NCBI GenBank assembly: GCA_964583685.1
Contig: CAZOVJ010000002.1
Location: forward strand, 213,862 to 277,861
Direction of reading: 5' to 3'
Source: an uncultured Gammaproteobacteria bacterium
GTDB taxonomy: Bacteria > Patescibacteriota > Microgenomatia > UBA8517
Length of the DNA: 64,000 nt
The number at the start of each line of letters is the position of its first letter. Within the stretch, counting starts at the first letter, position 1. Under the pieces are notes generated by a model. It worked only from the letters and a program-made list of their open reading frames with translations, ran no database searches and was not told the DNA's origin. This document shows positions 7,078-34,969 of the stretch, piece by piece. The position numbers and the translations under genes are program-made.

Positions 7078-8448
7078 ATGACAAAGTACAACAAGAACAA
7101 AATCTGGCACGAAGTACTAGAAAGCGTCAAGGTTTCTATTTCACCAGCTATTTTCTCAACCTGGCTTTCTCAGACCCATTTGTCAGAGCTAAAACAAATT
7201 AATAATAAAAGATGTCTGGTAGAAGTTGGTTGCTCTTCTTCGTTCGTTAAAACAACAGTTGAACAAAGATATTTTGGACTTCTTCAAAACTCTCTGGCTA
7301 AAGCCCTTAAACTTAATTGCGACTTGGTCTTTATAGTGAAACAAAACCCGCTAATGGAGACAGACCAAGAAGACTTCTCCAGTCCGCTTTTTGAACAGAG
7401 AAACGAGTATCAAGAATTTCTGGATAGGTTAATAAGCACAAGAATTAATTCCCACTATACTTTTGAGAATTTTGCTGTTTCTACCTCAAACCAGATGGCC
7501 TGGGCTGCAGCCGAGGCAGTGGCCAAAAAACCGGCTCATGCTTATAATCCCCTCTTTGTTTGGGGAGGAGTAGGAGTCGGCAAAACTCATTTAATGAACG
7601 CTGTTGCCTACCGCCTACTTAAAAAAAATATCGATGCCAAGGTATTCTTTTGCACTGGCGAGGAGTTCACCAATGACATTGTTGAGGGAATAAGAAATAA
7701 AACCACTCAATCTTTTCGAAGTAAATACAGAAAGCTTGAAGTACTTTTGATAGACGATATCCAATTCATTGCTGGAAAAGATGCTGTCCAGGATGAATTT
7801 TTCCACACCTTTAACGCTGTCACTGCCGCCGGAGGACAAATTATCTTAACTTCTGACAAGCATCCTTCTGAAATTGCCAGATTGGCTGGTCGTCTAAGAA
7901 GCCGTTTTCAGGCTGGTTTGATTGTTGACATTTCTCCTCCAGACTTCGAGCTTCGTTGTGCTATTGTTCAGATAAAATCAAGGCAAAGAAAAGTATCACT
8001 TCCTATGGATTTTGTTCAGTTAATAGCCGGAAATATCAACACTGCCCGGGAATTGGAGGGATTTATTATTCGCCTCATCTCTGAAACAAAAATTAAAAAG
8101 ACGGAAATCAATGAGGAACTCATCAAAAACCTACTTGGTCAGGGAATGGATACCAAAGAAAAGAGAAAAACTACAAGCCCGGAGGAGCTGGTAAGCGCTG
8201 TCTGTCAACATTTCTCAATCAGTAAAAGAGCAATGATGGGCCAGGCCCGTGCAAGAATTATTGCCCGGCCAAGACAAATTTTGATGTACCTCCTAAGAAC
8301 AGAGCTGGGTTTACCTTTTGAAGAAGCGGGAAGAATTGTTGGCCGGGACCATTCAACTGTTATTCATGCTGTGAATAGAATAACTCAAATGGCCTCCACC
8401 AATGTGCAAATCCGTGAGGATATCCTGGGGATTAAAGATTCCCTTTAG
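7078..8448 (+). CDS. dnaA: Chromosomal replication initiator DnaA
   Basis: Walker A GGVGVGKTHL, AAA+ box, C-terminal DNA-binding HTH (...VIHAVNRI...). Confidence 0.95.
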   Translation: MTKYNKNKIWHEVLESVKVSISPAIFSTWLSQTHLSELKQINNKRCLVEVGCSSSFVKTTVEQRYFGLLQNSLAKALKLNCDLVFIVKQNPLMETDQEDFSSPLFEQRNEYQEFLDRLISTRINSHYTFENFAVSTSNQMAWAAAEAVAKKPAHAYNPLFVWGGVGVGKTHLMNAVAYRLLKKNIDAKVFFCTGEEFTNDIVEGIRNKTTQSFRSKYRKLEVLLIDDIQFIAGKDAVQDEFFHTFNAVTAAGGQIILTSDKHPSEIARLAGRLRSRFQAGLIVDISPPDFELRCAIVQIKSRQRKVSLPMDFVQLIAGNINTARELEGFIIRLISETKIKKTEINEELIKNLLGQGMDTKEKRKTTSPEELVSAVCQHFSISKRAMMGQARARIIARPRQILMYLLRTELGLPFEEAGRIVGRDHSTVIHAVNRITQMASTNVQIREDILGIKDSL

Positions 8449-8643: not shown

Positions 8644-9756
8644 ATGGAGATGAAATTACAAGTTTTACAAGAAGAATTGGCAAAAGCCTTGCTCTTTTCC
8701 ATCCGCTTTGTCAATCCTCGGGCACAACTTCCGATTTTAGCAAATGTTCTTTTAGCAGCAAAAGGAAATAAACTTTCAGTTTTGGCCACAAACTTAGAAG
8801 TTTCACTAGCACTTTCAATAGGAGCGAAAATAGAAAAAGAGGGAAAAATAACTGTTCCGGCCAAGACAACGGCTGATTTAATCTCTAACCTTCCTCCCGA
8901 TTCAATTCGATTATTGGCTGAAAAAGAACAGCTGAAGGTCGCTTCAAGAGGATTTTCTGGTTTTATTTCTGGGACAAACGCTTCTGATTTTCCTTCAATT
9001 CCCCAAACTCTCGGGAAAAAGAGTTTTCAACTTCCCAAGGATGAATTTACAAAAGCCCTCAATCAGGTAATATTTGCTGCTTCGATTGAAGAGACACGAC
9101 CTGTACTAACAGGAGTCCTGTTTTTATTTGATAAGAAAAATCTGGTATTGGTTGCTTCAGACGGATTCAGATTATCGCAAAAGAAAATTTCGTTTAAGCA
9201 AACTTTAAAGCCTCAAAAGATGATTTTACCCAGAGGGGCCCTTTCTGAATTAGCAAAGATTTTGGCCACTTCTGAGGATTCTCTTTTCCTCCAAGTTAGA
9301 GAGACCGATAACCAGGCAATGTTTGGAATAGGAAGTGTAGTTCTTACAGCAAGAATGCTCGAAGGTGAATTTCCCAGTTTTGAAAAAATAATTCCTAAAT
9401 CATCTAAAGTAAAAATAAGAGTTGACAAGGAAGACTTAACCAGAGCAATAAGAACAGCCTCAGTTTTTGCAAGAGAATCAGCAAACATCGTTAATTTTGA
9501 TATTAAAAAAGGCCAGCTTTTGGTCTCTGCTGAAAGTTCAAAAAGTGGAAGTCAGAAGACGAAAATAGAGGCGAAAGTTGAAGGGGAAAGACTGAAAATT
9601 GCCTACAATTTCCGTTTTGTAGAGGATTTCCTAAGCACGGTTGAGAGTGATGAGGTGCAAGTTGAATTTACAGACACGCGCTCTCCTGGAGTTTTTAAAG
9701 ACCCAAAAGACCCGGATTTTCTCCATCTCATCATGCCCGTAAGAGTTCAGGGCTGA
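8644..9756 (+). CDS. dnaN: DNA polymerase III beta sliding clamp
   Basis: 370 aa; three-domain clamp pattern, N-term MKLQVLQEELAKALLFSIRFV...LANVLLAAKGNKLSVLATNLE. Confidence 0.9.
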   Translation: MEMKLQVLQEELAKALLFSIRFVNPRAQLPILANVLLAAKGNKLSVLATNLEVSLALSIGAKIEKEGKITVPAKTTADLISNLPPDSIRLLAEKEQLKVASRGFSGFISGTNASDFPSIPQTLGKKSFQLPKDEFTKALNQVIFAASIEETRPVLTGVLFLFDKKNLVLVASDGFRLSQKKISFKQTLKPQKMILPRGALSELAKILATSEDSLFLQVRETDNQAMFGIGSVVLTARMLEGEFPSFEKIIPKSSKVKIRVDKEDLTRAIRTASVFARESANIVNFDIKKGQLLVSAESSKSGSQKTKIEAKVEGERLKIAYNFRFVEDFLSTVESDEVQVEFTDTRSPGVFKDPKDPDFLHLIMPVRVQG

Positions 9757-10224: not shown

Positions 10225-11991
10225 TTAAAAACAGAAATATTCCTCGGGTCTAACGTAGACACCGTTTATGGCAAACTCCAAGTGCAAATGAGTGTTTCCT
10301 CCTAGATTAAATAACTCTCCTATTTTTGCCCCACTGGGGATACTCGTCCCGTAATTCGCTTCCCTTTTAAGGTGGGTGAAAACGATTGTGTATCCCCTAT
10401 TGGAGTCAAGATAAACATGGCTCCAGCCGGCTCTACCATTAGAAAAGCTGTTGTCATATACCCAGATGGTTTCTTCACCCAAGACCCGGGGAGCGAGGAC
10501 ATCAGTCGAGCCTGAAGGGAAAACATCGATGGCATAACCATAATAGGAGCACCTATTTGCCTGGCCTGAGCAGATGTTTCCTGGGCTGTTCAAAGGGCCC
10601 CGGCAGCCAGTTCCCTGAGGGAGAGCATAGCGACAACTACCTCCAACCCTTATCCAATACTCATTACTGCCGTGGCCAATTTCCCGTCCAGAATCATAAG
10701 AACCGTCAAGAGCCCCACGCATTCTTCCTCCGGGAACAGGACAATCAATAGGCGGATTGCCGATGACCACAGAGGCATTTGTGCTGGCAGTTGCCCCTTT
10801 CTGTTCTGATGTGTTGGCCGTGACAGTCAGGGAGTCAATAATGATTGAGTTATCATATTCTGTCCCCAAATTTAGTGAGTAGGTAAAGGTAAAACCTTGA
10901 CCCGGAGAGATTGTTTGAGGAAGATCGTTAAGTGCTTCTATCTCTGGATTTGGTTCGGCTGCATTACTTTCTCCGATGACTTTATATTGGTTTCTGATTT
11001 GAATATTGCTTAAACTTCCTTTTTTAGCGTAAATTTTTACTGTATATTCTACTGGGCCAAAACTGGGACAGCCAGCCCTGTTCATACAATTAGGGTCTGC
11101 GGTTTTCTCAATACCGATATAAGGAGAAGTGATTGCTCCTGGGACAAATGAGGGTGCTGGGGGGACAATGTAGGCGCCGGAATTGATGATAAAGAGAATG
11201 ACGGCGACGATGAGGGGGATAGCTACTATTACAACAACTGCAGGAGCAATCATCGCTCCGAGTGCCGCGCCCAATAAACCGGGAAAGGCGACTAAAATTA
11301 CACCAAGGCCAATAGCCGCTCCTGGAACCCCGCCGACCACAGCCAGGCCAGCGGCAGTTAGGCCAGCCATTACCTTTTTCCAGTTACGCTTGAGCAAGGG
11401 AATAACCTTGGTGGCAACCTGACTAGCTAGGGCACCAACAATTGGCGAGGCGACAATTGAAGCGGCAATCCCGGCAATCTTTGAAGCCAGAAACTGAACT
11501 CCTTTTTTAAGAAGTTTAGCCAGTCCTGTTTTAGCTAGTTTTCCAATACCTTTTTTAACAAGACCGCCAACGACTTGTTCTCCGGCCATCCTTCCTACTT
11601 CACCAAACACTCCTTTTAGGGGTATTGGGTTCTGCTTGAGGTTGGTTTCTAGTCTAGTATTAAAGTTTTCTTTCCAGACATTGTGAACATCTGTATTAAG
11701 CTCAACCTTGCTGGCTTCAATATCGGCGCTATGTTGCTGGTATTCATCTAAAAGGTTCAAGACTTCTGGTTCTGGCCTGGCCGGCTGGCCCGGGACTGGT
11801 CGGGAGACCTCTTTTTGGAGCAAGCCTTGAATTTGTTGAAGTTTCTGATCAGCGGGGATGTTCTCAGGGATTGTTCCTCGGAAAAGGGAAAGGAATGTTT
11901 CTTTTGAAACTCCCCGGTATTCATCTGACTGGGGACGAAGACGGAAAAAGCTGGCGACATCGATTAAAAATTGGGCTAATGACCTTTTCAT
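10225..11991 (-). CDS. Membrane protein with C-terminal M23 (LytM-type) peptidase domain; putative T4SS-associated cell-wall hydrolase
   Basis: N-terminal coiled coil, Gly/Ala-rich multi-TM core, C-terminal YAIDVF...GNTHLHLEF (HxxxD and HxH M23 motifs); adjacent to VirB4. Confidence 0.6.
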   Translation of the reverse strand: MKRSLAQFLIDVASFFRLRPQSDEYRGVSKETFLSLFRGTIPENIPADQKLQQIQGLLQKEVSRPVPGQPARPEPEVLNLLDEYQQHSADIEASKVELNTDVHNVWKENFNTRLETNLKQNPIPLKGVFGEVGRMAGEQVVGGLVKKGIGKLAKTGLAKLLKKGVQFLASKIAGIAASIVASPIVGALASQVATKVIPLLKRNWKKVMAGLTAAGLAVVGGVPGAAIGLGVILVAFPGLLGAALGAMIAPAVVVIVAIPLIVAVILFIINSGAYIVPPAPSFVPGAITSPYIGIEKTADPNCMNRAGCPSFGPVEYTVKIYAKKGSLSNIQIRNQYKVIGESNAAEPNPEIEALNDLPQTISPGQGFTFTYSLNLGTEYDNSIIIDSLTVTANTSEQKGATASTNASVVIGNPPIDCPVPGGRMRGALDGSYDSGREIGHGSNEYWIRVGGSCRYALPQGTGCRGPLNSPGNICSGQANRCSYYGYAIDVFPSGSTDVLAPRVLGEETIWVYDNSFSNGRAGWSHVYLDSNRGYTIVFTHLKREANYGTSIPSGAKIGELFNLGGNTHLHLEFAINGVYVRPEEYFCF

Positions 11992-13766
11992 TTTGTGATA
12001 AGTCGATATTCCTCTTGGGAGGAGACAATTTTAATGGGTGCATGATGGGGTCCGGCAAAAAGAATCCCCTCGCCAATATTGGCGGCCATGAGTAATTGTT
12101 TTTCTCCTTGAGATAAATAGAAAACCTCACCCACTTTGTCAATGGCAGCAGGAGATTGCTTTAAGAGGAGTTGCATGGCTGAGTTGGTAAGAATTGCCTT
12201 GCCAATATCTTGAGCCAGGAAATCTTCAACATCTTGGGTAATGGTTGTTAATCCTAGAGAATATTTTCTGGCCCGTTTGACCACAGACCAAAGAAATTGG
12301 GCCGAGTCTGGAAACCTCATCATATGCCAGGCCTCATCAACAACCAGCAGTCTTCTTTTTCGCTCTTTTTTGATTTTTGTCCAGATAAAATCAAGAATGA
12401 TGAACATGGCGATTGGTCTTAAGACATCCTCGAGCTCTCTAACAGAAAAGACGGTAAAAGGATTTCGAATATCAATGTTCGTGTGCTGGTCAAAAATTCC
12501 CACAAAAGAACCTTTGACAAATTTTTCAATTCTAGCGGCCAGGTCAAGGGCTTCTTTTGTTTCCATGCCGATTAAAACTTTGTAAAGATCTTCCATCAGG
12601 GGTGGCTCTTTGCTTTGGCTGTTCGGGTCCTGGGTGATCCCCTTTGCCTTATAGGAGGCAACCAGAGCTCCATCAAGTAACGCTTCTTGAGAGGCGGTTA
12701 GCTGGCCCATGATTATCTTAAGAAGAGAATGGAGAGAAAGGATTTTCAATCCCAGTTGATTTTCCCCCGCTTCATAGATCTGGGAGAGACCAAAAGGATT
12801 AATTTTAGAAGGAGAGGAAAAAGAGAAGGAGATAAATTCGCCTCCAACAGCATCAGCAAGGTTTTTATATTCACTTTCCGGGTCGATGACGATTATCTCT
12901 GTTCCCAACATCAAAGACCTTAAAGACTCAAGTTTGACAAAAAAGCTCTTCCCCGCCCCGCTGGTGGCAAAGATGCTCATATTTGAATTCTCCAAAGAGA
13001 ATCTGTCAAAAATAATAAAGGACTCATTTTGAGAATTGATTCCGTACAAAACACCGCTGTCACTTGAAAGTTCAGCCGAAGTAAAGGGAAAGGTTGTTGC
13101 CAGAGAAGTGGTGTCCATGTTGCGGGTGATTACCAGTTTATCTAAGCCGAAGGGGGCGGTTGAAAGGAAACCCTGTTCCATGTCCAGCGTTGCCTGTCTG
13201 GCCACAACCATTAAAGACCCCAGGGTTGATTCAACTTGACGAGTAAGTTGATTGAGTTCCTCTAAAGATGAAGCAGGGATGGTTATATAAAAGGAAAACT
13301 CAAAAAATCTCTCTACCCCCTTAACCAACTGTTCTTGTAAAACTTTGGCATCTTCCAGTTTTGCCTGGGTTGATGGGTTGGCAATTTTACCTCTTTGTAT
13401 ATCAGTAGAGATTTCCGCCTCCATTTCAGCGATTTTACGTCTGAGATCATCGAGGACGCCTTTTCCCTCAACTGGATGAATATAAAAGGAGATATCCAGG
13501 GAGGCGTTAAAGTTGATTATCGGTTCCAACCAACCAGGGGAGACAAATCTAGGATAGCCGGCCATGAACAGGGTTCGCAGATAAACATCACCAATCTTTA
13601 TGTAGCCAAAATCAACCTCCATCTTTTCCGGGGCGATTAAATCTAAAGAATGGAGAAATTTTTGTTCAAAGGCAATCAAAGGGTCAGCGATTTTTGGCTT
13701 TTCCACTATGGGGGCAGGAACCGGAGTTGTTCTTTTCTCAACAGGCTTTTTTTTAGGCAGTTTCAT
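11988..13766 (-). CDS. virB4: VirB4/TrbE/CagE-family conjugative ATPase (C-terminal ATPase part)
   Basis: Walker A SGAGKSFF, Walker B LLVVDEAWHMM, 592 aa. Confidence 0.8.
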   Translation of the reverse strand: MKLPKKKPVEKRTTPVPAPIVEKPKIADPLIAFEQKFLHSLDLIAPEKMEVDFGYIKIGDVYLRTLFMAGYPRFVSPGWLEPIINFNASLDISFYIHPVEGKGVLDDLRRKIAEMEAEISTDIQRGKIANPSTQAKLEDAKVLQEQLVKGVERFFEFSFYITIPASSLEELNQLTRQVESTLGSLMVVARQATLDMEQGFLSTAPFGLDKLVITRNMDTTSLATTFPFTSAELSSDSGVLYGINSQNESFIIFDRFSLENSNMSIFATSGAGKSFFVKLESLRSLMLGTEIIVIDPESEYKNLADAVGGEFISFSFSSPSKINPFGLSQIYEAGENQLGLKILSLHSLLKIIMGQLTASQEALLDGALVASYKAKGITQDPNSQSKEPPLMEDLYKVLIGMETKEALDLAARIEKFVKGSFVGIFDQHTNIDIRNPFTVFSVRELEDVLRPIAMFIILDFIWTKIKKERKRRLLVVDEAWHMMRFPDSAQFLWSVVKRARKYSLGLTTITQDVEDFLAQDIGKAILTNSAMQLLLKQSPAAIDKVGEVFYLSQGEKQLLMAANIGEGILFAGPHHAPIKIVSSQEEYRLITK

Positions 13767-14445
13767 TCTGGGAATTTTCTCCTTTCTTTATGACTTTTAT
13801 GGGTTGGGGATTATATGTTTCGTAAAAAAGGTTTATTAATTGTTCTGTTGTTAGCTGTTTTAATTTAAGCCCCAAGCGACCGGCTTGTCTGATGATATGG
13901 TCACGTTTTGGGTAAAGGGCGATTTTTGCCTTTTTAATAACATAGTTTTTGGGAAAGGGAAGCGGACCAGATTTTTTGGTTGTTGCCAGGAATGATTTTG
14001 TTATTCCCAATTCAAGGTTGGAGAAGGGGATAATGATGAAAAACCTTTTGCCCAAAACATTTTTCTTTTTGATTGTTTCAGAAATGAAATTTTTATAACC
14101 AGCCATGATGACTTGAAGCTTGGGATTGCTGATTTTCTGGCCTGCTTGGTCAAGGAAGGATAAATAATTTGAGATATCCTTTCTTTGTGAGCGAATGAGA
14201 ATTTGAACAGAAAAGGAAAGGCTGTTTAGAAATGCAGCATAGGAAACAATTACCGCCTGCTGTTCCTTTTCCGACAAGAGACCGAAGTTAAGGGAAGTTG
14301 ATTCAAGAACCAGAGCAGCCCCACCGTTCTTAAAAAGAACAATGTTTTCCAGAACATCGGCTATGGGTAGCCCCTTTTGGCTGGTGGAAGAGATGGGTCT
14401 ATCAGGGATGTTCAGTAAAGGTATTTTTAGGTTTTTAATTGACAA
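13753..14445 (-). CDS. VirB4 N-terminal-domain-like protein (separate ORF overlapping virB4 by 14 nt)
   Basis: 230 aa, ...FKNGGAALVLESTSLNFGLLSEKEQQAVIVSYAAFLNSLSFSVQILIRSQRKDISNYL... resembles the N-terminal region of Gram-positive-type VirB4 proteins; 230+592 aa gives a full-length VirB4. Confidence 0.4.
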   Translation of the reverse strand: MSIKNLKIPLLNIPDRPISSTSQKGLPIADVLENIVLFKNGGAALVLESTSLNFGLLSEKEQQAVIVSYAAFLNSLSFSVQILIRSQRKDISNYLSFLDQAGQKISNPKLQVIMAGYKNFISETIKKKNVLGKRFFIIIPFSNLELGITKSFLATTKKSGPLPFPKNYVIKKAKIALYPKRDHIIRQAGRLGLKLKQLTTEQLINLFYETYNPQPIKVIKKGENSQNETA

Positions 14446-15430
14446 CTTCTACGCTCCTTTCTCTGGCCTTGGCCTTGACGGCAATGGGCGGGATTATTGA
14501 GCCCTTGGCCTCAAATTTTAGAGGGCTAAAGATTAATCCTTCTTTCTCCGTTATCAATTCATAGGTGCCGTTAATCAAGGGAGTTAGGGCTAAGAAATGA
14601 CCAGCCTTGTTGGTTTTAAATGCCCTAACCGGCCGGCCTTGGGCATCTTTTATTTCCAATATCGCGCCTTCAACTATCTTGGCCTCAGGGGTCATTACCT
14701 GACCAACTACAGTATTTGGTCTGGTTGGTGGATTGGGAGGGGCTGCTTCAAGGGAAAACTGGGGCAACTGAGCGCCGATTGCTCTTTGCCCCTTTAGAGT
14801 TTGTTCAACCATGGTTGTTTGCGGCTGGATGACGCCCACCTGGGCTGGGGCTGATGTTTCTTCAACAACAAAACCGGCCTTAGGTGGTTTAGGTGATTTA
14901 GGAATGGGTATTGTTTTTTGGGGAACCTGGACCGTTTTTTGTGGGGCAGAAGGGAGAATAGAGGTTAAGAGGGCGGTAATCTTAGAAAGAAAAGATTGTT
15001 CAGATGTTTCCAGCTTGGTTAGAAAAGGACTTTTCAATTGGGGCAGGGTTGCCAAATAAGTTTCGGCCGCTTTTTCTCCATGGGGGATGATTATTTCTTC
15101 TTTGGGAGCTGGTCTTTCTTCTCTAAAGAAAATTGGTGGCTTTTTACTTCCTCGCCAAAAATAGAGGGTTGGTGAATAAACAGACCTAAAAAAGGCGATA
15201 ATCCATTTTTCTAAAGACCTTTCTTGAAAGGGTAAAAAGGCCAGGGCTGCTCCCAGAAGGGCAAAAAACAAAATAGCCGGCCATTTAATTATCGGATGGA
15301 GAGGGGAGGCATAGAACAAAAGGGAGACCAAACAGCCCCCGGCAAGCTGAAGAAATTGCTTTAAGGTCATGTCTCCTACCAAGCGAAATTGGTAAGAAGA
15401 GATTTGTTGCGGGACAGGATGCTGCTCCAT
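14435..15430 (-). CDS. PrgI/VirB3-like two-TM protein fused to Pro-rich linker and carboxypeptidase-regulatory-like beta domain
   Basis: N-term LKQFLQLAGGCLVSLLFYA...WPAILFFALLGAALAFLPF (2 TM, PrgI-like); C-term GAILEIKDAQGRPVRAFKTNKAGHFLALTPLINGTYEL (CarbopepD_reg-like); directly upstream of VirB4. Confidence 0.4.
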   Translation of the reverse strand: MEQHPVPQQISSYQFRLVGDMTLKQFLQLAGGCLVSLLFYASPLHPIIKWPAILFFALLGAALAFLPFQERSLEKWIIAFFRSVYSPTLYFWRGSKKPPIFFREERPAPKEEIIIPHGEKAAETYLATLPQLKSPFLTKLETSEQSFLSKITALLTSILPSAPQKTVQVPQKTIPIPKSPKPPKAGFVVEETSAPAQVGVIQPQTTMVEQTLKGQRAIGAQLPQFSLEAAPPNPPTRPNTVVGQVMTPEAKIVEGAILEIKDAQGRPVRAFKTNKAGHFLALTPLINGTYELITEKEGLIFSPLKFEAKGSIIPPIAVKAKARERSVEVVN

Positions 15431-15497: not shown

Positions 15498-16148
15498 TTA
15501 GAGTTGTTTCCCTTTGTATTCTCTTGTGGTTTTTATAAAGTATTTGACAATTTCTTCTACTTTATATTCTTCTCGCAGATAATTTACGCCAAAGTCGACG
15601 ATATCCTTAGTATAAACGAGCTGTTCTAGGAAAAGCCTTGGGTTAAATTCACCCCTGAAACGCTTTATTGCTTCTTTTATGACAGAATCTATTGTTGTGT
15701 AACCTTCTTTCAGAAAAAAGAACATATCTACATAATCCCTCCAGGTACCTCGCCGTCCTATGGCATAGGCTTTATTACTTGCTAAATCGTGTAGACTGAA
15801 AAGGTTAATTGAGGTTGTCATAACGAGGGGATGTAGAGGGGGATATGGATATTTTACAAAACTGATTTTAACTTCACCTGGAGTAATGATGTCGATTTGG
15901 TTTGTAATATCTTTTATTATCTGAGAACTATGGCCAAATACTTTTCTAATTTTTTGACGTAAATAATCTGTTGTTTTGCTTTTTATAAAGATGTCGAAGT
16001 CAAAAGATTTTCGGTGTTTTATTTGAAGTGCTATAGCTGTTCCACCTCCAAGTACCCCGGTTTTCTTAAAAGACCCGAGTTTCTTAAAAACCCTAAGCCT
16101 TTCTCTGTCAAATATTTCTAGGTAAATTTTCGACATACTTACTCTCAT
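15498..16148 (-). CDS. Nucleotidyltransferase AbiEii/DUF1814-like toxin
   Basis: GGGTAIALQIKHRKSFDFDIF matches the GGTAL / R-S-D-D-F motifs of AbiEii-family NTases. Confidence 0.55.
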   Translation of the reverse strand: MRVSMSKIYLEIFDRERLRVFKKLGSFKKTGVLGGGTAIALQIKHRKSFDFDIFIKSKTTDYLRQKIRKVFGHSSQIIKDITNQIDIITPGEVKISFVKYPYPPLHPLVMTTSINLFSLHDLASNKAYAIGRRGTWRDYVDMFFFLKEGYTTIDSVIKEAIKRFRGEFNPRLFLEQLVYTKDIVDFGVNYLREEYKVEEIVKYFIKTTREYKGKQL

Positions 16149-16410
16149 CTAGGGTTTGTTTTAGGTTCTCTAAGAGAATTGTTTTAACCCAATTGAAAGA
16201 GAACGAAGAGTAAATCTTCATTGGTTTTTTTAGAAATACTTTTTTTATTTCTTCTTCTGAATAAGCCTTAAAAAGCCACTTTAAATGTTTAAAGGTGCCA
16301 TAAGCCAAGGTTTGGTTGATAATGTAGGCGCGGTCTTTTTCGAGGTCTAGACTTTTGATATCCCGTGACCAAAGAATTGGTTGTAGTCTTTGAGGAATTT
16401 TAGCTTTCAT
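16108..16410 (-). CDS. Putative cognate antitoxin (short AbiEi-like) for the AbiEii-like NTase
   Basis: 100-aa ORF overlapping the NTase gene by 41 nt, upstream position. Confidence 0.3.
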   Translation of the reverse strand: MKAKIPQRLQPILWSRDIKSLDLEKDRAYIINQTLAYGTFKHLKWLFKAYSEEEIKKVFLKKPMKIYSSFSFNWVKTILLENLKQTLDESKYVENLPRNI

Positions 16411-16640
16411 TGTAGTTTAATTATATCTTTTACTTCTTCTCCTTTCCACTTTCCCCTTGCACTCCTTGCTCCCCCGTTTTAATATAGTTCTACGAGGTTG
16501 TGTTTAAGGAAACCCGTGACCTCCTTCGCCGAAGCTTTGGCGGGGAGTTATTCGGGTGCTGTGCCGCAACTGTAATCCCGCAAAGCGGGAGAGCCAGAAA
16601 ACTAACAACCTTCGGCCAAAGGCCGACCCGCCTCTGACGG

Positions 16641-17690
16641 GTGTCCCGAGCAGGAGAAAAAATGTCAAAAGAACTTGCACTTAATACCCAACTTTGGCAG
16701 CCTAAGTTGGGTGAGTCTCCAGGACAGGCAAGAGAGAGAACGCAAAGAGATTTCGCCTCAGCCCTAATTGAGCAACATGGAGGAAAATTAGAGGAAGGGA
16801 TTAATCCCTATTTTTTGATTTTGGATTCAGATGGGGATTTAGTAGACCCGGACTCAGGCGAAAAGCTGGAGAATTTCTTGAGACGGGAAACCAGAATTGA
16901 TTTTTGGGAGAACAAGGCTTTTAAGCGGATTTCAGAGTGGGCAAGAAGGAACAGAGAGGGTTATTTGATTTGGGCGAGTCCTCCCTCCTCAGAAGTAGGC
17001 TACACAGAGTCCCGCTTTATAGTGATGGAGTTGATATCAGAACCAGAAAAGCAAAAGTCTTATCTTGAGGAACTTAAGAGTATTGGTATCGATATTGAAA
17101 TCATGGGCGGCTGGCAAAAGGTCCTTTTCTGTCGAGCCATTCGTGGCCGACAAACAGAGAAAGATTGTTTACAAATTGCTAGGCAAATTGCCCCTTTTTC
17201 TCCTGAGGAGATAGATACCTTCGAAAATACAGATGATTTGCGGGCCACTCCTATTCCTTTTGAGCCGGGTTTTGCTATGGACTGGATAGACTTTTTAGCC
17301 CAGTTTATTGAGCCCCCAGAAATTTGGCAAGCGATAAGAAGGGGCGATGATTGGCGAGCCAAAAGGAAAACGACCGAGATTGCCGATCAGATTGTTGAGA
17401 GGAACTATCCAGGTATTTTAAAAGCAACAACAGAGCTTGATTTTTTACTGGCCGGTGCCCAGATGGAGTTTGAAGCAGCTCGGATGGGAAGACCTCTTCA
17501 GGCAGTAGGTAGTTGTGGCGTGTCCAATATCGAGGCCTTGAAAAGACAAGGTATTTTTAATTTTCTTTATTCTTATTTTTCTTTAGAGAAAACCTTTCCT
17601 TGCCCAAATTGCGGCATGCCCATCCAGCGGGGTACTAGTCGGTGTCCTTATTGCGGGGCAAGAAACAAAGGCTGTCAGCTTCATAAATAG
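16641..17690 (+). CDS. Hypothetical protein with C-terminal zinc ribbon (CPNCG...CPYCG)
   Basis: 349-aa ORF with RBS GAGCAGGAG; no recognisable family. Confidence 0.5.
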   Translation: MSRAGEKMSKELALNTQLWQPKLGESPGQARERTQRDFASALIEQHGGKLEEGINPYFLILDSDGDLVDPDSGEKLENFLRRETRIDFWENKAFKRISEWARRNREGYLIWASPPSSEVGYTESRFIVMELISEPEKQKSYLEELKSIGIDIEIMGGWQKVLFCRAIRGRQTEKDCLQIARQIAPFSPEEIDTFENTDDLRATPIPFEPGFAMDWIDFLAQFIEPPEIWQAIRRGDDWRAKRKTTEIADQIVERNYPGILKATTELDFLLAGAQMEFEAARMGRPLQAVGSCGVSNIEALKRQGIFNFLYSYFSLEKTFPCPNCGMPIQRGTSRCPYCGARNKGCQLHK

Positions 17691-17722: not shown

Positions 17723-19468
17723 ATGTCTGAACAAGGAGAAGGACCGGAGATAATACCTGCTGGTGGGTCGTGGAGCCCGGAGACAATAAAGAGGACAGCC
17801 GAGGCAACAAAGGTTAAAGGCTACGGCCCCATTCGCCCGGGAGGGGAGAAGGAGCAAATCCCGCGTATAGAAATTGATACAGGCCCCCTGGCAGACCAGG
17901 TAAAGGAGTTAATAAAAGGCCAGGAGGGTTTATTGGCTACTTTTGAAGCTCAACGTTTATCAACTGAGCAGCTTCTTGGGCTCTCACAAAAACAGAGTGA
18001 TGAATTAGTCAGAAGTTTGCAAAAGTTGCCGACCAGTCAAGAACGAGCACGGTGGGTGGACGTAGAATATAACCGTCTATTTTATACAAGATTTACTCCC
18101 AACATCGAGCCAAGATTTTACACAGAGATTTCCGATCCAGAAGAGAGAGCATTGTGGGACGCCAGATGGCAACTTGCCCGGGCCGCTTACTTTAAGCTGG
18201 CAACAACCGCCTTTCCCGATAAGTATGTAGAAAATGCAGACATTCAGCTTTTAAGCAATGAGCAGCTGGGGAGGCTTTATAAAATGCCCGGGGTTAAGCC
18301 AATGCTAAAGGCGTATGCAGAGGCAATAGTTGGAAAAAGAAAAGTGGTTGTTGAGAAGGATGGTGAAGACGAGACAATAACAATCTGGGATTGTAAAAGC
18401 ATGGCGGATTTTGAAAAATTCCGGACAAAATTGAGAGGGGAAAGTTTATCTATTGATGAACAGATGAAGGATGCAGTAGAAAGGGAAATAGAGAAACGAG
18501 AGCGTTCGGAATCAAGAAAGCTTAATGAAAGAGAAAGAAGAGAAACCAGAAAGCTTTTGGAAAAGGAGGCGGATGCGGTTGCCTTTAACCTATTTTGGGT
18601 TTCTAATCAAATAGAATCCTCTAATAGTCGTTATTCTGATGCCGGTAAGTTTCATAGATTACCTGGCGGAATGGCCTCACTGGAATTTTGGAGTGTGATG
18701 CATCCACAGGAGAGATTTGAGATTAAGGTCGAGCATTCTCAGAATTGGGGAGCGTTTAGTACTTGGGGAATTGAACAAATAGAAAGATTTAAAAATGAGG
18801 TGGGTTTTGACGATGATGATAAGGATAATAAGATAGAATTTCAAGCCGCTCCACGAGATAAATATTGGGAAAGGGGTCCAACAACAGAGCTTCCCGAAAA
18901 AAAGGGTAAGGTTTATACAATTTATGCCCCAGAATGTTATCCGATACTCACTTGTAGAAGTCTTTTTGAACATACCCGAGAGGAGGGGGGGAGTAAAAAA
19001 ACACTTTTGGAGCGCTTCTCAAAGGGCGGAGATGTAATCTGGGGAGATATTGGGGCAGACGCAGCAGTAAGGTGGCTTACCAGTAAATTTAACAAAGCGG
19101 TACCGCTTCTTGAGTATTATAATCCCGGAAAACCGTTCGAAAGGCGAGATTTCGGTTGGGGAAAGACATGGGCAGACCCTTTGAAAGAATTACTCGAAGC
19201 CCGTTTGAAATTGAACAAGGCCCTGGAAGGCCCCAAAGGGAAAGAAAGAAAGGAAGGATCCATACTGGGGATAACCCACCAGACCTATCACAACCTAAAA
19301 GTTTGGGCCATTTATGCTGCTCATGGGGGTGTGGCCTTTCCAGACAAAAGAGAACCGACACTAAATCTACCGGGTCTTCCGGGGAATGAGCAATTAATAT
19401 TAGGGAGGGCGCTGCGCCACGAAAAAGTTGAATATTTGGATATGCATGAAGGCTTCAGAATAGAATAA
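17723..19468 (+). CDS. Hypothetical protein (581 aa, charged coiled-coil middle, W/G-rich C-terminal region)
   Basis: Long ORF immediately downstream of the zinc-ribbon protein; no recognisable motifs. Confidence 0.5.
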   Translation: MSEQGEGPEIIPAGGSWSPETIKRTAEATKVKGYGPIRPGGEKEQIPRIEIDTGPLADQVKELIKGQEGLLATFEAQRLSTEQLLGLSQKQSDELVRSLQKLPTSQERARWVDVEYNRLFYTRFTPNIEPRFYTEISDPEERALWDARWQLARAAYFKLATTAFPDKYVENADIQLLSNEQLGRLYKMPGVKPMLKAYAEAIVGKRKVVVEKDGEDETITIWDCKSMADFEKFRTKLRGESLSIDEQMKDAVEREIEKRERSESRKLNERERRETRKLLEKEADAVAFNLFWVSNQIESSNSRYSDAGKFHRLPGGMASLEFWSVMHPQERFEIKVEHSQNWGAFSTWGIEQIERFKNEVGFDDDDKDNKIEFQAAPRDKYWERGPTTELPEKKGKVYTIYAPECYPILTCRSLFEHTREEGGSKKTLLERFSKGGDVIWGDIGADAAVRWLTSKFNKAVPLLEYYNPGKPFERRDFGWGKTWADPLKELLEARLKLNKALEGPKGKERKEGSILGITHQTYHNLKVWAIYAAHGGVAFPDKREPTLNLPGLPGNEQLILGRALRHEKVEYLDMHEGFRIE

Positions 19469-19649: not shown

Positions 19650-21311
19650 TTATTGTTTTTTAAGCCCCAGCAGCCTCCTGGCTGTGCGGGCGATAGCAAT
19701 CTTCCGGCCCACATCTTGTCCAGCGCCTCTCTCGCCTTCTTCTAAGGCCTGAATTCCCATTTCTGCACCGTATAAACCTCCCCATTTACCCACCTGGCGG
19801 GATGGGCCAAAAGTTTCTCCTATTGCCGCACCGAAGGGGAAGGGTTTGCCTTCAATAAGCGAGCGAATCAAATTTCCGGCAGAAGGAACAAGGAAAAGAA
19901 TGACCAGAGAGACAAGAAAACCCACAAGAGCGGGGCTTCCCCAAAATCCCGGAAGTGAAATAAGGTCCGAAGAAATTGTGTTGTTGCTAAGATCAAAGAG
20001 ATCAAGGCCGCTGCTGCTAAATGGCCCAAGCTTAAGAGGAACTGTTGCCCAAAAGAAGTAGTGAGATAGAAAGAGCATAATAATAATCGTTGGATAGACA
20101 GCAGCATTGGCAAGCAGGTTTTTTAGCCAAGAACCAATTCCTCCAAAGCCAGGAAAGGCACCAAGAAGTAGGATTAAAGGGCCGGCAATTATTAAGAGGA
20201 GAAGGTTGATAAAGGTTTTAACTTGGAGCCAGACGATACGAATTACAGCGACAAGCAGAGCAATGAAGATTAATAGGAGCATTACTAAACCCATGATAGC
20301 CCCGACGACCGCGCCAGCCCCCATCGCATACCCCGCTCCTATGATTGCAGCCCCCCCGACAAGAGGCACAGTAGCGGCAATCAACAATGAGAGGCAAATC
20401 GCAAGGAGAGAGGGGCCTCCTATCATTTCTTGAATTAGCCTTCCCAAATCGAGATAGCTGATATCTGTGCCAACAGATTTCACACATACTCCTACTGCCG
20501 CGACGACAACATAAGAGAGGTCTATTACAAGACCGGCAATAGCATAGGAGAAAGCAATTAAAATCAAGACAAGTATTAATCGGGGGAGGGCAGATTGAAT
20601 GGTGATTACTGTTTGGGGCGAGATTTTGACCCGGAACATAATCATAAAGGCAATAGCCACAAAAACAAGAACCATTAAGAAGTAGGCTATATTACTGGTT
20701 GCCTTCCAAAGGGACTGAATGGGTTGGAGGTTTCTAAAACCGTAGCCTTGGGCACGGGCCTCAGGGATGATGTGGAGACGCGAGGCTGCGTCAGCCAGAT
20801 ACTGGACACCCGAGGCAGGATGATTTGTTGAAAAGGAATCACCGACAGCGGCCAAGGTGAGTATTGGCCCTAATGAAGGGAGAGATGATTGATCAGGAGA
20901 CTCTGTGTTTTCTTGCTGATTTCCTATTAAACTTGGAACGATTACATTTAAACAGTCTCTTACCATCTCAAGATTACCGCTTTTACCTTCGGCCAAACAC
21001 CTGCTTACTTCCTCGTCGTTGGCAATTATTGTTAATGAATGTCCTATCCAGGCAACCTGGGCATAGGTATAGCGCTCGCCGAAGATTTCAGTTGGGTTAT
21101 CCGGATCAAAGACCCTGAGAACAAAATCGGCAAAATCTGGATTATACCAGGGCCTTGGCTCCTCCTGAGCCCTGGCAACGGACACGGTAAAAGAAATCAA
21201 GAGAAAGCAGGCAAGGAGAATCGAGACAAGCAGTTTTTTGGGCATAGCAAAATTATAATAACATATCTTATCGCCCAGGGGGGAGATGACCTTCGTCAAT
21301 CCACATTGCAA
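19650..21311 (-). CDS. VirB6/TrbL-like polytopic membrane protein
   Basis: Signal/anchor, periplasmic N-domain, at least 6 TM in Gly/Ala-rich core; location next to pilin array and SLT protein. Confidence 0.45.
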   Translation of the reverse strand: MQCGLTKVISPLGDKICYYNFAMPKKLLVSILLACFLLISFTVSVARAQEEPRPWYNPDFADFVLRVFDPDNPTEIFGERYTYAQVAWIGHSLTIIANDEEVSRCLAEGKSGNLEMVRDCLNVIVPSLIGNQQENTESPDQSSLPSLGPILTLAAVGDSFSTNHPASGVQYLADAASRLHIIPEARAQGYGFRNLQPIQSLWKATSNIAYFLMVLVFVAIAFMIMFRVKISPQTVITIQSALPRLILVLILIAFSYAIAGLVIDLSYVVVAAVGVCVKSVGTDISYLDLGRLIQEMIGGPSLLAICLSLLIAATVPLVGGAAIIGAGYAMGAGAVVGAIMGLVMLLLIFIALLVAVIRIVWLQVKTFINLLLLIIAGPLILLLGAFPGFGGIGSWLKNLLANAAVYPTIIIMLFLSHYFFWATVPLKLGPFSSSGLDLFDLSNNTISSDLISLPGFWGSPALVGFLVSLVILFLVPSAGNLIRSLIEGKPFPFGAAIGETFGPSRQVGKWGGLYGAEMGIQALEEGERGAGQDVGRKIAIARTARRLLGLKKQ

Positions 21312-23889
21312 CTCCGTGACAATAGGTTATCCCGGCCCCCCAGCGGATCACTCCGATATCGACGTAGCCCCCACGTTCCCTGGTTTCCTCATCGCTGCAG
21401 CCAATAGTTCCACCATAGTTGCCAACATAAACCATGTCTCCCCCAAGAGTCACCTTTCCATTACTGTCATACTCGAGCTGGATGCCCCGGCCGCCATATG
21501 TAGGGTCAGAGGGATTAAATCTACCGTATTTTTTCCAAAGTAAGATGCGCGCAGCCAGTTCCAGAGCATCAGAGGCTTCGCAAGGGTTTAAGAAATTGGG
21601 ACTGTTGGGGTTCTGTTCGTCTGTTGTCGTCACGCCATAGTAGGCACCGCGACCGATTTGTACAGGACCGCAGTAAGAAGAGCGTAGTTCGTAGGTATCC
21701 CATTCCCCACAGAGCTCACCCTTTTTCGAGGGTTTACATGGGCCTGATTGGCTACCATTGCTTTCGATTTGCCAGATAGCCTCAAGGACTTCTGCTGGCA
21801 CATCGTATCTGACGGCAATACCGGCCAGGTCCTGAGAAATCGGATGAGGAAAGCCAGAGATTGTTTCGCCAAAGTCTTGAGGCCGTAAAGCCTTTTGGAT
21901 TCCCTTTAAAAAATATTCATAGATTCCACCAAGATGGGGGATAAAAATATTAGCCCTTTCACCAGACCTGTTATTGGATGGATTTCCGGCCAGAACTTCG
22001 ACACCATCAGTAGTTGATGAATAACGGGCAGTAGTTACTCCAGGCAAATCCATAAGCTCAACTTGCTCCAGAAGACCTTTGGGATAAAGTCGTTTATAAA
22101 TAGATTGTTCCCCGGCCACCAGCTTGTCCCAGACCTCGTCAGCCTTGGGCGTTCTGGTATAAACAGAAAGAGCAACATAAACATCTTTTTCGCAAATGTC
22201 TACAGTGGACTGACGCCGGCATTGATCAATTTCCTCTTGGGAAGGAGGGGTACCCCCGGGAAGTCGTCCTTGAAGTTGGTGAATACAATTTCGATACCTA
22301 CTTTCATCAAGTTCTGCCTCATCAGCCCCACCGAAATCACAAGTAAATTTGGCGGTATAACGGATAGTTCCGGACATTTGTTCATCTGTGTCTTCGTTTG
22401 CAGAGATCGCTTGTTCATGGTATTCACCAAAAAGGTCGTCGCCTGAATTCCAGCGGGCATTTTCTAAATCGCAATAATCGGTGTCATAAAACTTGACCTT
22501 TTCCGTCAGTACTCCCAGGGTTTCTCCTCCAATAGCGGCACTATCTTGGTCACTTCTGACCTTGGGTATCTTGGGTTTTTTGCCTGGAACATAGGTTTTT
22601 TGCAGCAGATTGGCTAAATCGGAAACCTCTTCCATGTGGCTAAAGTAAAGATTGTGGAAATCGCTATCTGGATAATCCTCGTAGTCTGGGGAATCAGGTT
22701 CAAAAGTTACATCCGTAACCTCGACATCGTTCTCAAGATTAATTTCCGGCTGGCTGGTGGCTGAAAGGTCAGCAATAACCTGTCCCTTTCTATTCTCGGT
22801 GGAGGAATAGGGGATATAGGGAAAGAGGTAGGAGAAAAGGCGTCGGTCACTAAGAGGATCGTCGATGCAGAAGTAGATTGGTAACCCAAAGACTCCAAGA
22901 TGGGGAGTACAAACTTTTCCTCTCCATCTTAGATAATCCCGCCAGTAATCGATAAAATTTGAATAATCTTCTTCACGAGGAGGGAGATAGTTAATCCATT
23001 CGCTAAGGCGATATTTGTTTTCAGAGAAAAAGAGGTTTGCAAATAGAGTCTGTAATGCTGGAGCTAGATTTTCACCAACCAAATTTTTGGTTGCCGGTTC
23101 ATAGCAAGGAACCTGGACTTCAGGATTAAGCGGAAAAAGAGCGCCGGGCTCTGCGGTGCAGACGACTATTTGATTATGTCTAAAAGAAGTAACCTCGAAT
23201 TCCTGGGTTAGACGGGCATTGGCTATCTGCTGAAATCGTGCATCGGCTTGAACGCGCCAGGGAAGGAGTTTGTTTAAGGGGCCTGAATAATCGATGAGAA
23301 GATAGCTTATTTGCTCAGGGGTATAGGGACTATAAGAGCTGACAGGCCAATTGCCAAGGGACAATTCTTCTGGCCGGTAAAGGGACCCGTTCAAATACCA
23401 ACTGACATATTCGTTCATCCTGGTGGATGGACCAAGCATATTTCCACCTAGATCACCCATCCCTTCTTGACTGTTTGGCACGAGCTGGGTGTTGCCCATG
23501 ATGGGCAGTTCGGCGTCGGATAAGCCTATGGAGACATAGGCTGTTTCCTGGGATTCGTAATAGCAGGTTCGCGAGCCATCAGGACCTATTTTGCAGCTCC
23601 CGGTAGCTGGGGTAACGGTGAAGGTTTTTTTGATAATCAGGTCATTGCCGCAATAAAGCTTGGTTTCTTTAACTTCCCTATCACAGGGGCTGGCTTGGTA
23701 GGGCCGGAGAGAATGAAACTCGTCATCATCAGTTATTTCGTTTGTTTCATTACAGGGAACATAAGGCTCAGGAACCTGGGCAAAGGTAGAAGCAGGGAAT
23801 ACCAAATGCGAAGTACCAAATGCGAAGTACCAAATGAAGATAGTTATCGTATCTCGTATCTCGTATCTCGTGGTTTTGGGCAGACTCAT
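21268..23889 (-). CDS. Large secreted Cys-rich surface protein with C-terminal lytic-transglycosylase (SLT/VirB1-like) domain
   Basis: 873 aa; signal peptide; ...VPAEVLEAIWQIESNGSQSG... SLT-type catalytic ES motif; many Cys. Confidence 0.55.
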   Translation of the reverse strand: MSLPKTTRYEIRDTITIFIWYFAFGTSHLVFPASTFAQVPEPYVPCNETNEITDDDEFHSLRPYQASPCDREVKETKLYCGNDLIIKKTFTVTPATGSCKIGPDGSRTCYYESQETAYVSIGLSDAELPIMGNTQLVPNSQEGMGDLGGNMLGPSTRMNEYVSWYLNGSLYRPEELSLGNWPVSSYSPYTPEQISYLLIDYSGPLNKLLPWRVQADARFQQIANARLTQEFEVTSFRHNQIVVCTAEPGALFPLNPEVQVPCYEPATKNLVGENLAPALQTLFANLFFSENKYRLSEWINYLPPREEDYSNFIDYWRDYLRWRGKVCTPHLGVFGLPIYFCIDDPLSDRRLFSYLFPYIPYSSTENRKGQVIADLSATSQPEINLENDVEVTDVTFEPDSPDYEDYPDSDFHNLYFSHMEEVSDLANLLQKTYVPGKKPKIPKVRSDQDSAAIGGETLGVLTEKVKFYDTDYCDLENARWNSGDDLFGEYHEQAISANEDTDEQMSGTIRYTAKFTCDFGGADEAELDESRYRNCIHQLQGRLPGGTPPSQEEIDQCRRQSTVDICEKDVYVALSVYTRTPKADEVWDKLVAGEQSIYKRLYPKGLLEQVELMDLPGVTTARYSSTTDGVEVLAGNPSNNRSGERANIFIPHLGGIYEYFLKGIQKALRPQDFGETISGFPHPISQDLAGIAVRYDVPAEVLEAIWQIESNGSQSGPCKPSKKGELCGEWDTYELRSSYCGPVQIGRGAYYGVTTTDEQNPNSPNFLNPCEASDALELAARILLWKKYGRFNPSDPTYGGRGIQLEYDSNGKVTLGGDMVYVGNYGGTIGCSDEETRERGGYVDIGVIRWGAGITYCHGVAMWIDEGHLPPGR

Positions 23890-32038: not shown

Positions 32039-32470
32039 ATGCGAGTGATTAACAAAAGAGCAAGATTTAATTACCGGCTAATAGATGAACTTGAAACAGG
32101 AATAAGTCTTACAGGTAAAGAAGTGAAGGCAGTGAGAGCTGGCCTTGTTGACTTAACCAGTGCTCATGGAAAAATTTTGCGAGGAGAAGTTTATCTAGTG
32201 GGAGCGGTTATCAATGCTTCTCGGGCCCAAAACTACGACCCTTCGCGTAGTAGAAAACTACTTTTGCATAAAAAGGAGATTGTTTCCCTTCAGAACAAAA
32301 TGAAACAAAAAAAGTTGACTCTTGTGCCTACTGCAATGTATACTAGGGGACGTTTAATTAAGTTGAAGCTAGCTTTAGCTAAAATTAAGCGCAAATTCGA
32401 GAAAAAAGAGACAATTAAGAAACGAGATATAGAGAGAGAAATCGAAAAAGAATTAAGGGGACGTCAATAG
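32039..32470 (+). CDS. smpB: SsrA-binding protein SmpB
   Basis: MRVINKRARFNYRLIDELETGISLTGKEVKAVRAG...: canonical SmpB N-terminus. Confidence 0.9.
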   Translation: MRVINKRARFNYRLIDELETGISLTGKEVKAVRAGLVDLTSAHGKILRGEVYLVGAVINASRAQNYDPSRSRKLLLHKKEIVSLQNKMKQKKLTLVPTAMYTRGRLIKLKLALAKIKRKFEKKETIKKRDIEREIEKELRGRQ

Positions 32471-33640: not shown

Positions 33641-33656
33641 ACATTTCGACAAATTC

Positions 33657-34094: not shown

Positions 34095-34104
34095 AAGATT
34101 AAAG

Positions 34105-34188: not shown

Positions 34189-34220
34189 AAGGTTCTGGTT
34201 TTTCCACAATAATTATTTTG

Positions 34221-34965: not shown

Positions 34966-34969
34966 CATT

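Follow-up and report, generated by a model that had tools for sequence, protein, structure and literature searches.

A predicted cobalamin riboswitch with modular insertions in the leader of an uncharacterised Patescibacteria gene family

The 64,000-nucleotide (nt) stretch of DNA analysed here (contig CAZOVJ010000002.1 of assembly GCA_964583685.1, positions 213,862 to 277,861; hereafter the window) is part of a Patescibacteria chromosome near its origin. Within it, an intergenic region at 16411-16661 separates two divergent units, a toxin-antitoxin pair on the minus strand and, on the plus strand, a gene for a protein of 342 amino acids (aa), p342, which probably begins with the ATG at 16662. 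The minus-strand pair encodes a 100-aa DUF6922 protein (16108-16410), the gene for which overlaps that of a 216-aa AbiEii nucleotidyltransferase toxin (15498-16148); the pair is an AbiE-type toxin-antitoxin module. The original prediction for this region described a multi-stem RNA domain in front of p342, and every stem that it listed is present, over the same interval (16496-16655, plus strand). We propose that the 342-aa gene has this element as its 5' leader and that the element is a riboswitch for cobalamin (vitamin B12), predicted to act as an OFF switch by docking the ribosome-binding site (RBS), and we put the probability of this reading at about 0.88.

At Rfam gathering thresholds, the window yields only a tmRNA and six tRNAs, with nothing reported for the leader region; sub-threshold matches became visible only in short local scans. 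In such a permissive scan of 16350-16750, the Cobalamin model RF00174 matches 16481-16624 on the plus strand over its full length (model positions 1-189; E = 2.3e-4, a score below threshold that is weighed further on). The blocks GGAA, GCUG-GCCGCAACUGUAA and GAGCCAGAAAAC are aligned at high posterior probability, and the alignment handles a CCUCC...GGGAG hairpin as an insertion within loop L4. The core joints of the family are all found, namely GGAA after P3, GCCGCAACUGUAA around P5 and P6, and the B12 box (AGCCAG..AC), and they are near-invariant in the 11 leaders that we compared. Four orthologous leaders pass a gathering score of the Cobalamin clan (Rfam CL00101) and the window copy does not; on sequence comparison, we assign it to the clan through its homology to these scoring members and not through its own score.

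Parsed by hand, the aptamer core is a P3-P4-P5-P6 four-way junction closed by P1, with the joints GGAA and GCUGUGCCGCAACUGUAA and the B12-box segment GAGCCAGAAAAC. P1 is an 8-bp helix between the strands GAGGUUGU (16494-16501) and ACAACCUU (16605-16612), both on the plus strand like all parts of the element. The pairing of GGTTGT with ACAACC at 16605-16610 had been predicted correctly; its 5' strand begins one position later than had been given (16496-16501, not 16495-16500), and the helix is lengthened by flanking GA/UU. The six core columns (GGUUGU/ACAACC) covary over the 11 leaders, with the first position varying as G-C, A-U and C-G. J1/3 is a short bulge, GUUU (16502-16505), without a P2 stem-loop. 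The 5' strand of P3, AAG, is followed by the conserved GAA of J3/4 (together 16506-16511), and the two align to the GGGAA core of RF00174. This AAG faces CUA, with AG pairing to CU at 16602-16603; the second pair of P3 is A-U in six leaders, G-C in four and U-G in one, and its first position is mostly a non-standard A-A, which the Rfam alignment also marks. P4 (16512-16557) joins ACCCG at 16512-16516 to CGGGU at 16553-16557, as had been predicted, and four of its five pairs are changed on both sides among the leaders. Loop L4 of the window copy, UGA...UUAUU, is split by a lineage-specific 28-nt inserted hairpin (CCUCC..GGGAG, 16520-16547) that folds on its own at -15.3 kcal/mol. The internal CTCC..GGAG hairpin of the original prediction is present, but its sequence had been given with a TT missing; the true sequence of the hairpin between the P4 strands is CCTCCTTCGCCGAAGCTTTGGCGGGGAG.

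On the 3' side of P4, J4/5, P5 (UG/CA), L5 (UGCCG) and J5/6 make up an invariant block, GCUGUGCCGCAA (16558-16569), which aligns to the P5/L5 region of both RF00174 and the AdoCbl-II (adenosylcobalamin) model RF01689. P6 (16570-16597) consists of a basal CUG/CAG, UAA, a 15-nt extension hairpin (UCCCGC-AAA-GCGGGA, 16576-16590), and then GAGC, with which the B12 box begins. The B12-box region GAGCCAGAAAACUA (16591-16604), placed by the Rfam alignment and comprising J6/3 and the 3' strand of P3, aligns to the RF00174 consensus GAGCCAGGAGACCu at posterior probability "*", and the box is kept as AG(C/U)C(A/C/G)G(A/G)A..C(C/U/G) in all leaders. The J1/13 linker (33 nt, 16611-16643) contains two hairpins, CGGCC-AAA-GGCCG and ACCCG-CCUCUGA-CGGGU (in full, GGCCAAAGGCC and ACCCGCCTCTGACGGGT), and folds at -15.5 kcal/mol. 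Because these hairpins show no sequence conservation, they are lineage-specific spacers. The possibility that the second, through its CCUCUGA loop, acts as an anti-Shine-Dalgarno element was rejected, the other leaders having no such hairpin. After the linker hairpins comes GAGCAGGAG and then the ATG. This last segment contains P13 and L13, the expression platform, UCC[CGAGCA]GGA (16644-16655), and it is with the 3' strand of P13 that the Shine-Dalgarno sequence GGAG (16653-16656) begins.

For comparison, the DNA around 12 members of the p342 family was fetched, spanning profile E-values from 1e-142 to 4e-26. The leader is present before 11 of the 12: the window itself and loci L002, L032/L043, L044, L052, L053, L055, L056, L058, L060 and L061. 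Some of these copies are recognised by Rfam without special measures, as L044 and L061 score 43.8 and 38.5 bits, above gathering for Cobalamin, and L055 and L058 score 40.1 and 38.7 bits, above gathering for AdoCbl-II. In local scans, L002 scored 20.7 bits against Cobalamin and L032/L043 32.9 bits against AdoCbl-II. A covariance model built from L043 alone recovers the window element with a score of 28.5 bits (E = 4e-5 in 282 kb), as its sole match in the 64-kb window. When viral contigs were searched for exact occurrences of the pattern CTGTGCCGCAACTGTA, seven matches resulted, none with flanking riboswitch motifs; we take these to be chance matches, apparently in coding sequence.

The leaders share a core of 79-107 nt and differ chiefly in extra hairpins, which are confined to five fixed sites. 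A double hairpin of 49-51 nt occupies J1/3 in L002, L052 and L053. L4 carries a hairpin of roughly 28-39 nt in the window, L052 and L053 and none in the other eight leaders, in which it is a loop of 6-7 nt, for example UGAAAAU or UUAAAAU; the interrupted loops read UGA[hairpin]UUAUU in the window and UGA[hairpin]AAUU in L052 and L053. J4/5 has a double hairpin in L002 and L060. Between the basal strands of P6 there are 6-76 nt, counting the extension together with the conserved joints: 76 nt in L002 and 46 nt in L060, and 6-7 nt without a hairpin in L053, L055 and L058, so that the P6 extension is dispensable. Finally, the linker is long in the window, L052 and L061, in each of which it folds into hairpins, and measures 0-9 nt in the other eight leaders, with none at all in L058. 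It is because of hairpins inserted at these fixed sites that several copies score below the Rfam thresholds and that the orthologues are split between the class-I and class-II Rfam models. Standard annotation consequently overlooks the window copy and several of its relatives.

To score the pairing, each leader was parsed by hand into named segments, and a script verified that the segments join into a unique contiguous stretch. From these we made an ungapped 50-column digest (A11) of the 11 leaders, containing only paired columns and L5, with insertions removed, and scored P1, P3, P4, P5, basal P6 and P13 (22 pairs, 242 cells). Standard pairs fill 93.4% of the cells, compared to 80.0 +/- 1.3% in shuffles; two-sided changes occur in 14 of the 22 pairs, compared to 6.4 +/- 1.6; the covariation score is 0.445, compared to 0.167; and in 500 shuffles none reached any of five measures. 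When partners were slid by 1-3 columns, pairing was at most 48.5% and the score at most 0.168. Compensatory changes are present in every helix. The U-A pair of P5 becomes A-U in L053; basal P6 changes from CUG/CAG to CCG/CGG in L053 and CGG/CCG in L058, the middle pair going from U-A to C-G and G-C; P1 of L061 is wholly different yet complementary (CUUAGU/ACUGAG); and the P13 stem is UCC/GGA in nine leaders, UUC/GAA in L002 and UUU/AAA in L058. On this hand-parsed alignment, the four-way junction closed by P1 that marks the clan thus has covariation support. Since homologous leaders in 10 other contigs covary this strongly, the multi-stem domain goes beyond chance. The two checks put forward with the original prediction, an Rfam search and a comparison of related upstream regions, both came out in its favour, through a full-length local Cobalamin match with four orthologous leaders above gathering and through leaders that are conserved and covary. 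Two kinds of alignment were discarded. When whole or trimmed leaders were aligned with MAFFT (A4, A5, A7, A8), large insertions misplaced the helices, and these alignments were not used for pair counts; nor was one from a single-sequence R1 model (A10), in which the 5' halves of the window and L002 were mis-registered.

In every leader, the last element is a stem of 3 bp with a loop of 6-7 nt, the 3' strand of which lies 3-11 nt from the ATG and is a purine run acting as the ribosome-binding site. L5 is identical in 11 of 11 leaders and L13 is CGAGCA in nine, and the two can pair as UGCCG:CG(A)GCA, with five pairs and one bulged A (-5.2 kcal/mol). Of the two variants, CGUCGCA in L053 confines its change to the predicted bulge and retains all five pairs; the other, in L052, is taken up below. 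The platform of the class-II prototype env8 is said to read ...CGAGCAAGGAGA..., a sequence on which the comparison does not draw. In characterised cobalamin riboswitches, an L5-L13 kissing loop is contacted and stabilised by the bound cobalamin, its loop-loop helix always has at least one unpaired nucleotide, and L13, in which the RBS is located, has to be carried by a stem-loop (PMC5028336, PMC7367189); a short J1/13 linker works best, that of env8 being 7 nt (PMC5028336). Because the platform predicted here matches the published one, and the linkers are short or compacted by hairpins, we infer a B12-dependent translational OFF switch, with B12 as ligand, the L5-L13 contact and the OFF direction as the inferred parts. 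What the comparison does show is which fold this is, that it is conserved and covaries, that the P13 hairpin exists and that the element is tightly linked to the p342 family. Bound cobalamin would stabilise the kissing loop between L5 (UGCCG) and L13 (CG(A)GCA), and the RBS would then be held in the docked structure, repressing translation of the 342-aa gene and, in this genome, probably that of the 581-aa gene downstream as well. With little B12, the L5-L13 contact would be unstable and the genes translated. No intrinsic terminator was found by a scan of the plus strand in the window, L043, L044 and L002.

Several observations weigh against this interpretation. The window copy scores 24.4 bits against RF00174, for which gathering is 31.5, and is thus below threshold. 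One family member, L001 (GCA_900174565.1, 5908-6001; P0003), has no riboswitch, just an AT-rich spacer of 92 nt. (A divergent VIT1 gene precedes that spacer; VIT1 is the neighbour in L053 as well, yet the riboswitch is retained there.) A hand-parsed alignment from which insertions were removed leans toward structure, a bias to which the slid-partner control is only a partial answer, and P1 of L052 has two U-U mismatches. With regard to the platform, L5 and L13 are nearly invariant, which places their contact beyond a covariation test; the energy of the duplex is undistinctive, shuffled platforms equalling it in about 18-83% of trials; the L13 variant of L052, CGUCCA, is changed at the bulge position and also loses one predicted pair; and P13 alone is marginal at -1.6 kcal/mol, and +0.8 in L002. 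In the window and L061, moreover, a site inside a linker hairpin outscores L13 by energy. In the window, this site is in the first linker hairpin (16611-16625), where CGGC in the stem is complementary to L5 (UGCCG) and beats L13; it is not conserved elsewhere and could be a window-specific competing contact for L5. Lastly, J1/3 is too short and variable for a module of the env8 type and gives no indication of which form of cobalamin is sensed (PMC6158498).

Three other explanations were considered. One could envision a cobalamin fold re-tuned to a different ligand (another corrinoid, a compound on the way to B12 or derived from its breakdown, or some metabolite unrelated to it), in which case the p342 family would be unrelated to B12. 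The window, L002 and L043 copies do fall under the Rfam gathering thresholds, but their low scores stem from large insertions and not from changes in the core, the joints of which are conserved, and four orthologous leaders are above the curated cut-offs. The pocket-shaping J1/3 element of env8 is unrecognisable here, but known class-II members, among them the E. faecalis switch, likewise lack it (PMC6158498). The B12 box does depart from the consensus, reading GCCAGAAAAC instead of GCCAGGAGACC, and p342 is not a known B12 gene, but the L058 element lies directly beside genes for a B12-dependent ribonucleotide reductase (RNR) and a cobalamin adenosyltransferase. We therefore regard a change of ligand as improbable. 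A slightly longer shot is a cobalamin riboswitch that works mainly at the level of transcription or mRNA stability (through access for RNase or Rho-dependent termination), or that switches expression on, instead of occluding the RBS through a kissing loop. Cobalamin riboswitches that use Rho-dependent termination and RNA decay besides RBS occlusion are described in PMC6158498 and PMC5028336, as is an activating corrinoid riboswitch in PMC10327014, and such modes would accommodate an L5-L13 pairing that is undistinctive by energy and weakened in L052. Against them stands the platform of 11 of 11 leaders, in which the stem that presents L13 covaries, overlaps with the Shine-Dalgarno sequence and lies 3-11 nt from the ATG; the short leaders have only a linker and P13 between aptamer and start codon, and the four plus strands scanned lack an intrinsic terminator.

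Least credible is a free-standing small RNA, or GC-rich hairpins without function that arose by chance or are remnants of mobile DNA near the toxin-antitoxin genes. Thermodynamically the leader is only mildly unusual, with minimum-free-energy z-scores that are similar on the plus (-2.2) and minus (-2.0) strands, and the minus strand has a predicted terminator-like site at 16625-16606. The Rfam matches, by contrast, are confined to the plus strand, and the element is conserved and covaries across 11 unrelated contigs. Its orientation never changes and it invariably adjoins the start codon of a p342 family member, while the genes on its far side vary from contig to contig. This explanation is already refuted by the comparative data. 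The original prediction had offered a riboswitch-like leader or a small RNA as options; the riboswitch stands, and a free-standing RNA does not, as the element runs into the RBS in 11 of 11 leaders.

The sequence upstream of the leader belongs in part to the neighbouring unit. It had been described as a pure pyrimidine tract of 80 nt, which is an overstatement, since pyrimidines make up 78% of 16415-16494 and 87% of 16425-16479. A consensus scan found a promoter match, TGGAAA-17-TATAAT, on the minus strand at 16448-16420, within this tract, part of which serves the divergent gene on that strand as leader and promoter. The GC fraction of the leader is 0.52, compared to 0.28-0.41 across the 700 bases upstream. 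On the plus strand, a putative sigma-70-type promoter, TTGCAC-17 nt-TAATAT (16457-16485), was read by eye, with a -10 box that ends 9 nt 5' of P1; the consensus scan did not call it in the window, and its -35 hexamer matches at only 3 of 6 positions. Promoters were called at an equal distance 5' of P1 in L043 and L044 (TTGAAA-17-AATAAT) and in L002 (TTGTAA-16-CATAAT).

The gene tied to the riboswitch, p342 (16662-17690, plus strand), encodes a member of an uncharacterised Patescibacteria family with a C-terminal four-cysteine zinc ribbon. Close relatives are few; a profile search of 1.84 billion representatives at E <= 0.001 gave 452 clusters at 50% identity, a count to be taken as at least 452. 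No domain beyond the zinc ribbon was found in p342 with Pfam, NCBIfam or PHROGs, Pfam and NCBIfam applied to 77 family members matched zinc-ribbon models only, and a sequence profile search of the PDB matched only ribbon proteins. The AlphaFold2 model is confident (mean predicted local distance difference test score, pLDDT, 91.4), with no Foldseek match at E <= 0.001 in PDB or BFVD, and neither sequence nor model gives evidence of a signal peptide or membrane segment. An identity as NrdD was considered and rejected. NCBI names one 59-aa fragment of the family (P0197, MBU1089104.1) "anaerobic ribonucleoside-triphosphate reductase, partial", but the fragment covers just the C-terminal CxxC...CxxC ribbon, and the family has no NRDD catalytic barrel with a C-terminal glycyl-radical motif after the zinc ribbon; the label looks like an annotation artefact.

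The neighbours of p342 homologues vary between loci, and the most informative locus is L058 (GCA_018895885.1, JAHINU010000052.1, 1-2457), in which a class II RNR (TSCPD domain) and a PduO-type cob(I)alamin adenosyltransferase are followed by the riboswitch and the p342 homologue; the riboswitch, the minimal one at 79 nt, fills an 88-nt gap before that homologue. Given this neighbourhood and the predicted repression by B12, the p342 product may be tied to the B12 economy of the cell, as a supplier or handler of the cofactor or as a stand-in for a function that depends on B12. We would give even odds that the family, set apart only by a near-obligatory B12 riboswitch, is an unrecognised component of that economy in Patescibacteria, whether as a cytoplasmic factor in the capture, processing or delivery of scavenged B12 to the adenosyltransferase and class II RNR, or as a B12-independent substitute for a step that needs B12.

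A second gene, p581 (581 aa, 17723-19468, plus strand), starts 32 nt 3' of p342 in the window and is probably co-transcribed with it. The "two-gene unit" of the original prediction exists here in that p581 follows p342, but the riboswitch tracks the first gene and not the second: the window and L032/L043, in the latter of which p581 is divergent, are the only loci at which it adjoins a p342 homologue, and p342 and the riboswitch are absent from 34 of 34 other p581 loci. The riboswitch therefore belongs to p342, and a two-gene unit as a general rule is ruled out. The p581 family comprises at least 43 clusters, with homologues in Patescibacteria. Its model is confident and mostly helical (pLDDT 83.2), with no Foldseek match at E <= 0.001 in the PDB; p581 has no Pfam domain, and Pfam, NCBIfam and PHROGs gave only weak sub-threshold matches, which were disregarded. 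The sources of p581 (loci L008-L042) include two Patescibacteria lineages, three contigs labelled uncultured Gammaproteobacteria and one (L013) labelled Woesearchaeota; we suspect that the latter two labels reflect binning or labelling errors.

The wider surroundings include dnaA (7078-8448) and dnaN (8644-9756), near the chromosomal origin, and a type IV secretion-like cluster made up of an M23 peptidase-like protein (10225-11991), a VirB4/TraG-like ATPase (11988-13766), PrgI (14435-15430), two large unannotated proteins (19650-21311 and 21268-23889) and a pilin of the type IV secretion system (26444-27388). An arrangement of the origin with a type IV secretion-like cluster has been reported for Patescibacteria (PMC12102498). 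In the window, this cluster encloses the riboswitch unit, which in L043 and L055 adjoins PrgI; no such placement is seen elsewhere. Farther along the window, SmpB (32039-32470) is directly followed by the tmRNA (32457-32816), beyond which five tRNA genes, some on either strand, are clustered at 33551-35054. In the interval 38115-39785, a large serine recombinase with resolvase and recombinase domains (545 aa, minus strand) directly adjoins a tRNA gene at 38115-38186, possibly the integration site of a mobile element. At 46617-49291, genes for a CN-hydrolase, a nitroreductase-family protein and a Glycos_transf_3 protein (phosphoribosyltransferase/nucleoside phosphorylase type) lie in a run; BluB belongs to the nitroreductase family, but nothing at this site connects its nitroreductase-family gene with B12.

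B12 riboswitches are among the commonest riboswitches, and the leader described here is a divergent member of this well-known class, an RNA ordinary in itself. Among the papers searched, none was found on natural cobalamin riboswitches in Patescibacteria. What gives the finding its value is the association with a gene family, together with the modular insertions. From a riboswitch one learns directly to which signal its gene responds, and this one would tie the large unannotated p342 family to vitamin B12. The orthologous set combines class-I-like and class-II-like peripheries with one core and is a compact natural example of modularity. Patescibacteria have minimal metabolism and obtain cofactors from hosts or neighbours; if p342 does act in the cobalamin economy, the leader would be a handle on how ultra-small, host-dependent bacteria manage a cofactor that they cannot make. 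The need for expression tools has been raised (PMC11665869), and a short native switch, translational on the reading preferred here, could become one.

Among known systems, the closest include class-II cobalamin riboswitches, of which the prototype is env8HyCbl (PDB 4FRN; Rfam RF01689, AdoCbl-II), subclass IIa sensing methylcobalamin or hydroxocobalamin and IIb adenosylcobalamin; a class-I example is that of T. tengcongensis (PDB 4GMA; Rfam RF00174, Cobalamin). L4 is normally a T-loop of about 7 nt that docks with an internal loop of P6; in the window copy it carries the 28-nt hairpin, which, like the two hairpins in the J1/13 linker, departs from class II. Class II is defined by the absence of the P2 module and by a P6 that ends in just a loop or a simple stem-loop; in class I, P1 and P3 are separated by the P2 loop-stem-loop, and P6 has the large extension P7-P11 (PMC7367189). 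With a J1/3 of 4 nt and a 15-nt hairpin extending P6, the window copy has the former features and not the latter, and its periphery is class II by P2 and P6 alone. It further shares with class II the four-way junction core, and two predicted features would match as well, translational control in which the RBS is in a small P13 hairpin with a short linker to P1, and an L5-L13 loop-loop helix with an unpaired purine (PMC5028336, PMC7367189); the orthologous leaders L055 and L058 pass the RF01689 gathering score. It differs from class II in that its GUUU at J1/3 is unlike the env8 module (PMC6158498), its B12 box resembles the class-I form (GCCAGAAAAC) and its best score, below threshold, is against the class-I model.

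With class I, the window copy shares core joints and a B12 box that fit the consensus, in a full-length match to the model; among the orthologues, hairpins between P1 and P3 are seen in L002, L052 and L053 and a long P6 extension in L002 and L060, and L044 and L061 pass the RF00174 gathering score. Class-I switches often work through terminators, whereas the scan found none in the window copy, which also lacks the P2 loop-stem-loop and P7-P11 extension that define the class (PMC7367189). The "atypical" yvrC switch of B. subtilis, in which a mixed class-I/class-II periphery is likewise built on one core, as across our orthologous set, includes a P2 module and regulates an operon for B12 transport through transcription termination (PMC7367189), whereas the window element has neither P2 nor terminator and precedes an uncharacterised gene. 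At the level of regulons, those that Vitreschak and Rodionov reportedly described in 2003 by comparative genomics include B12 uptake genes such as btuB/btuFCD, cob/cbi genes, adenosyltransferases and B12-independent isozymes such as metE and nrdAB/nrdDG. Although p342 belongs to none of these families, it is predicted to share with them repression under plentiful B12, and one of its homologues lies beside nrdJ and a PduO-type adenosyltransferase.

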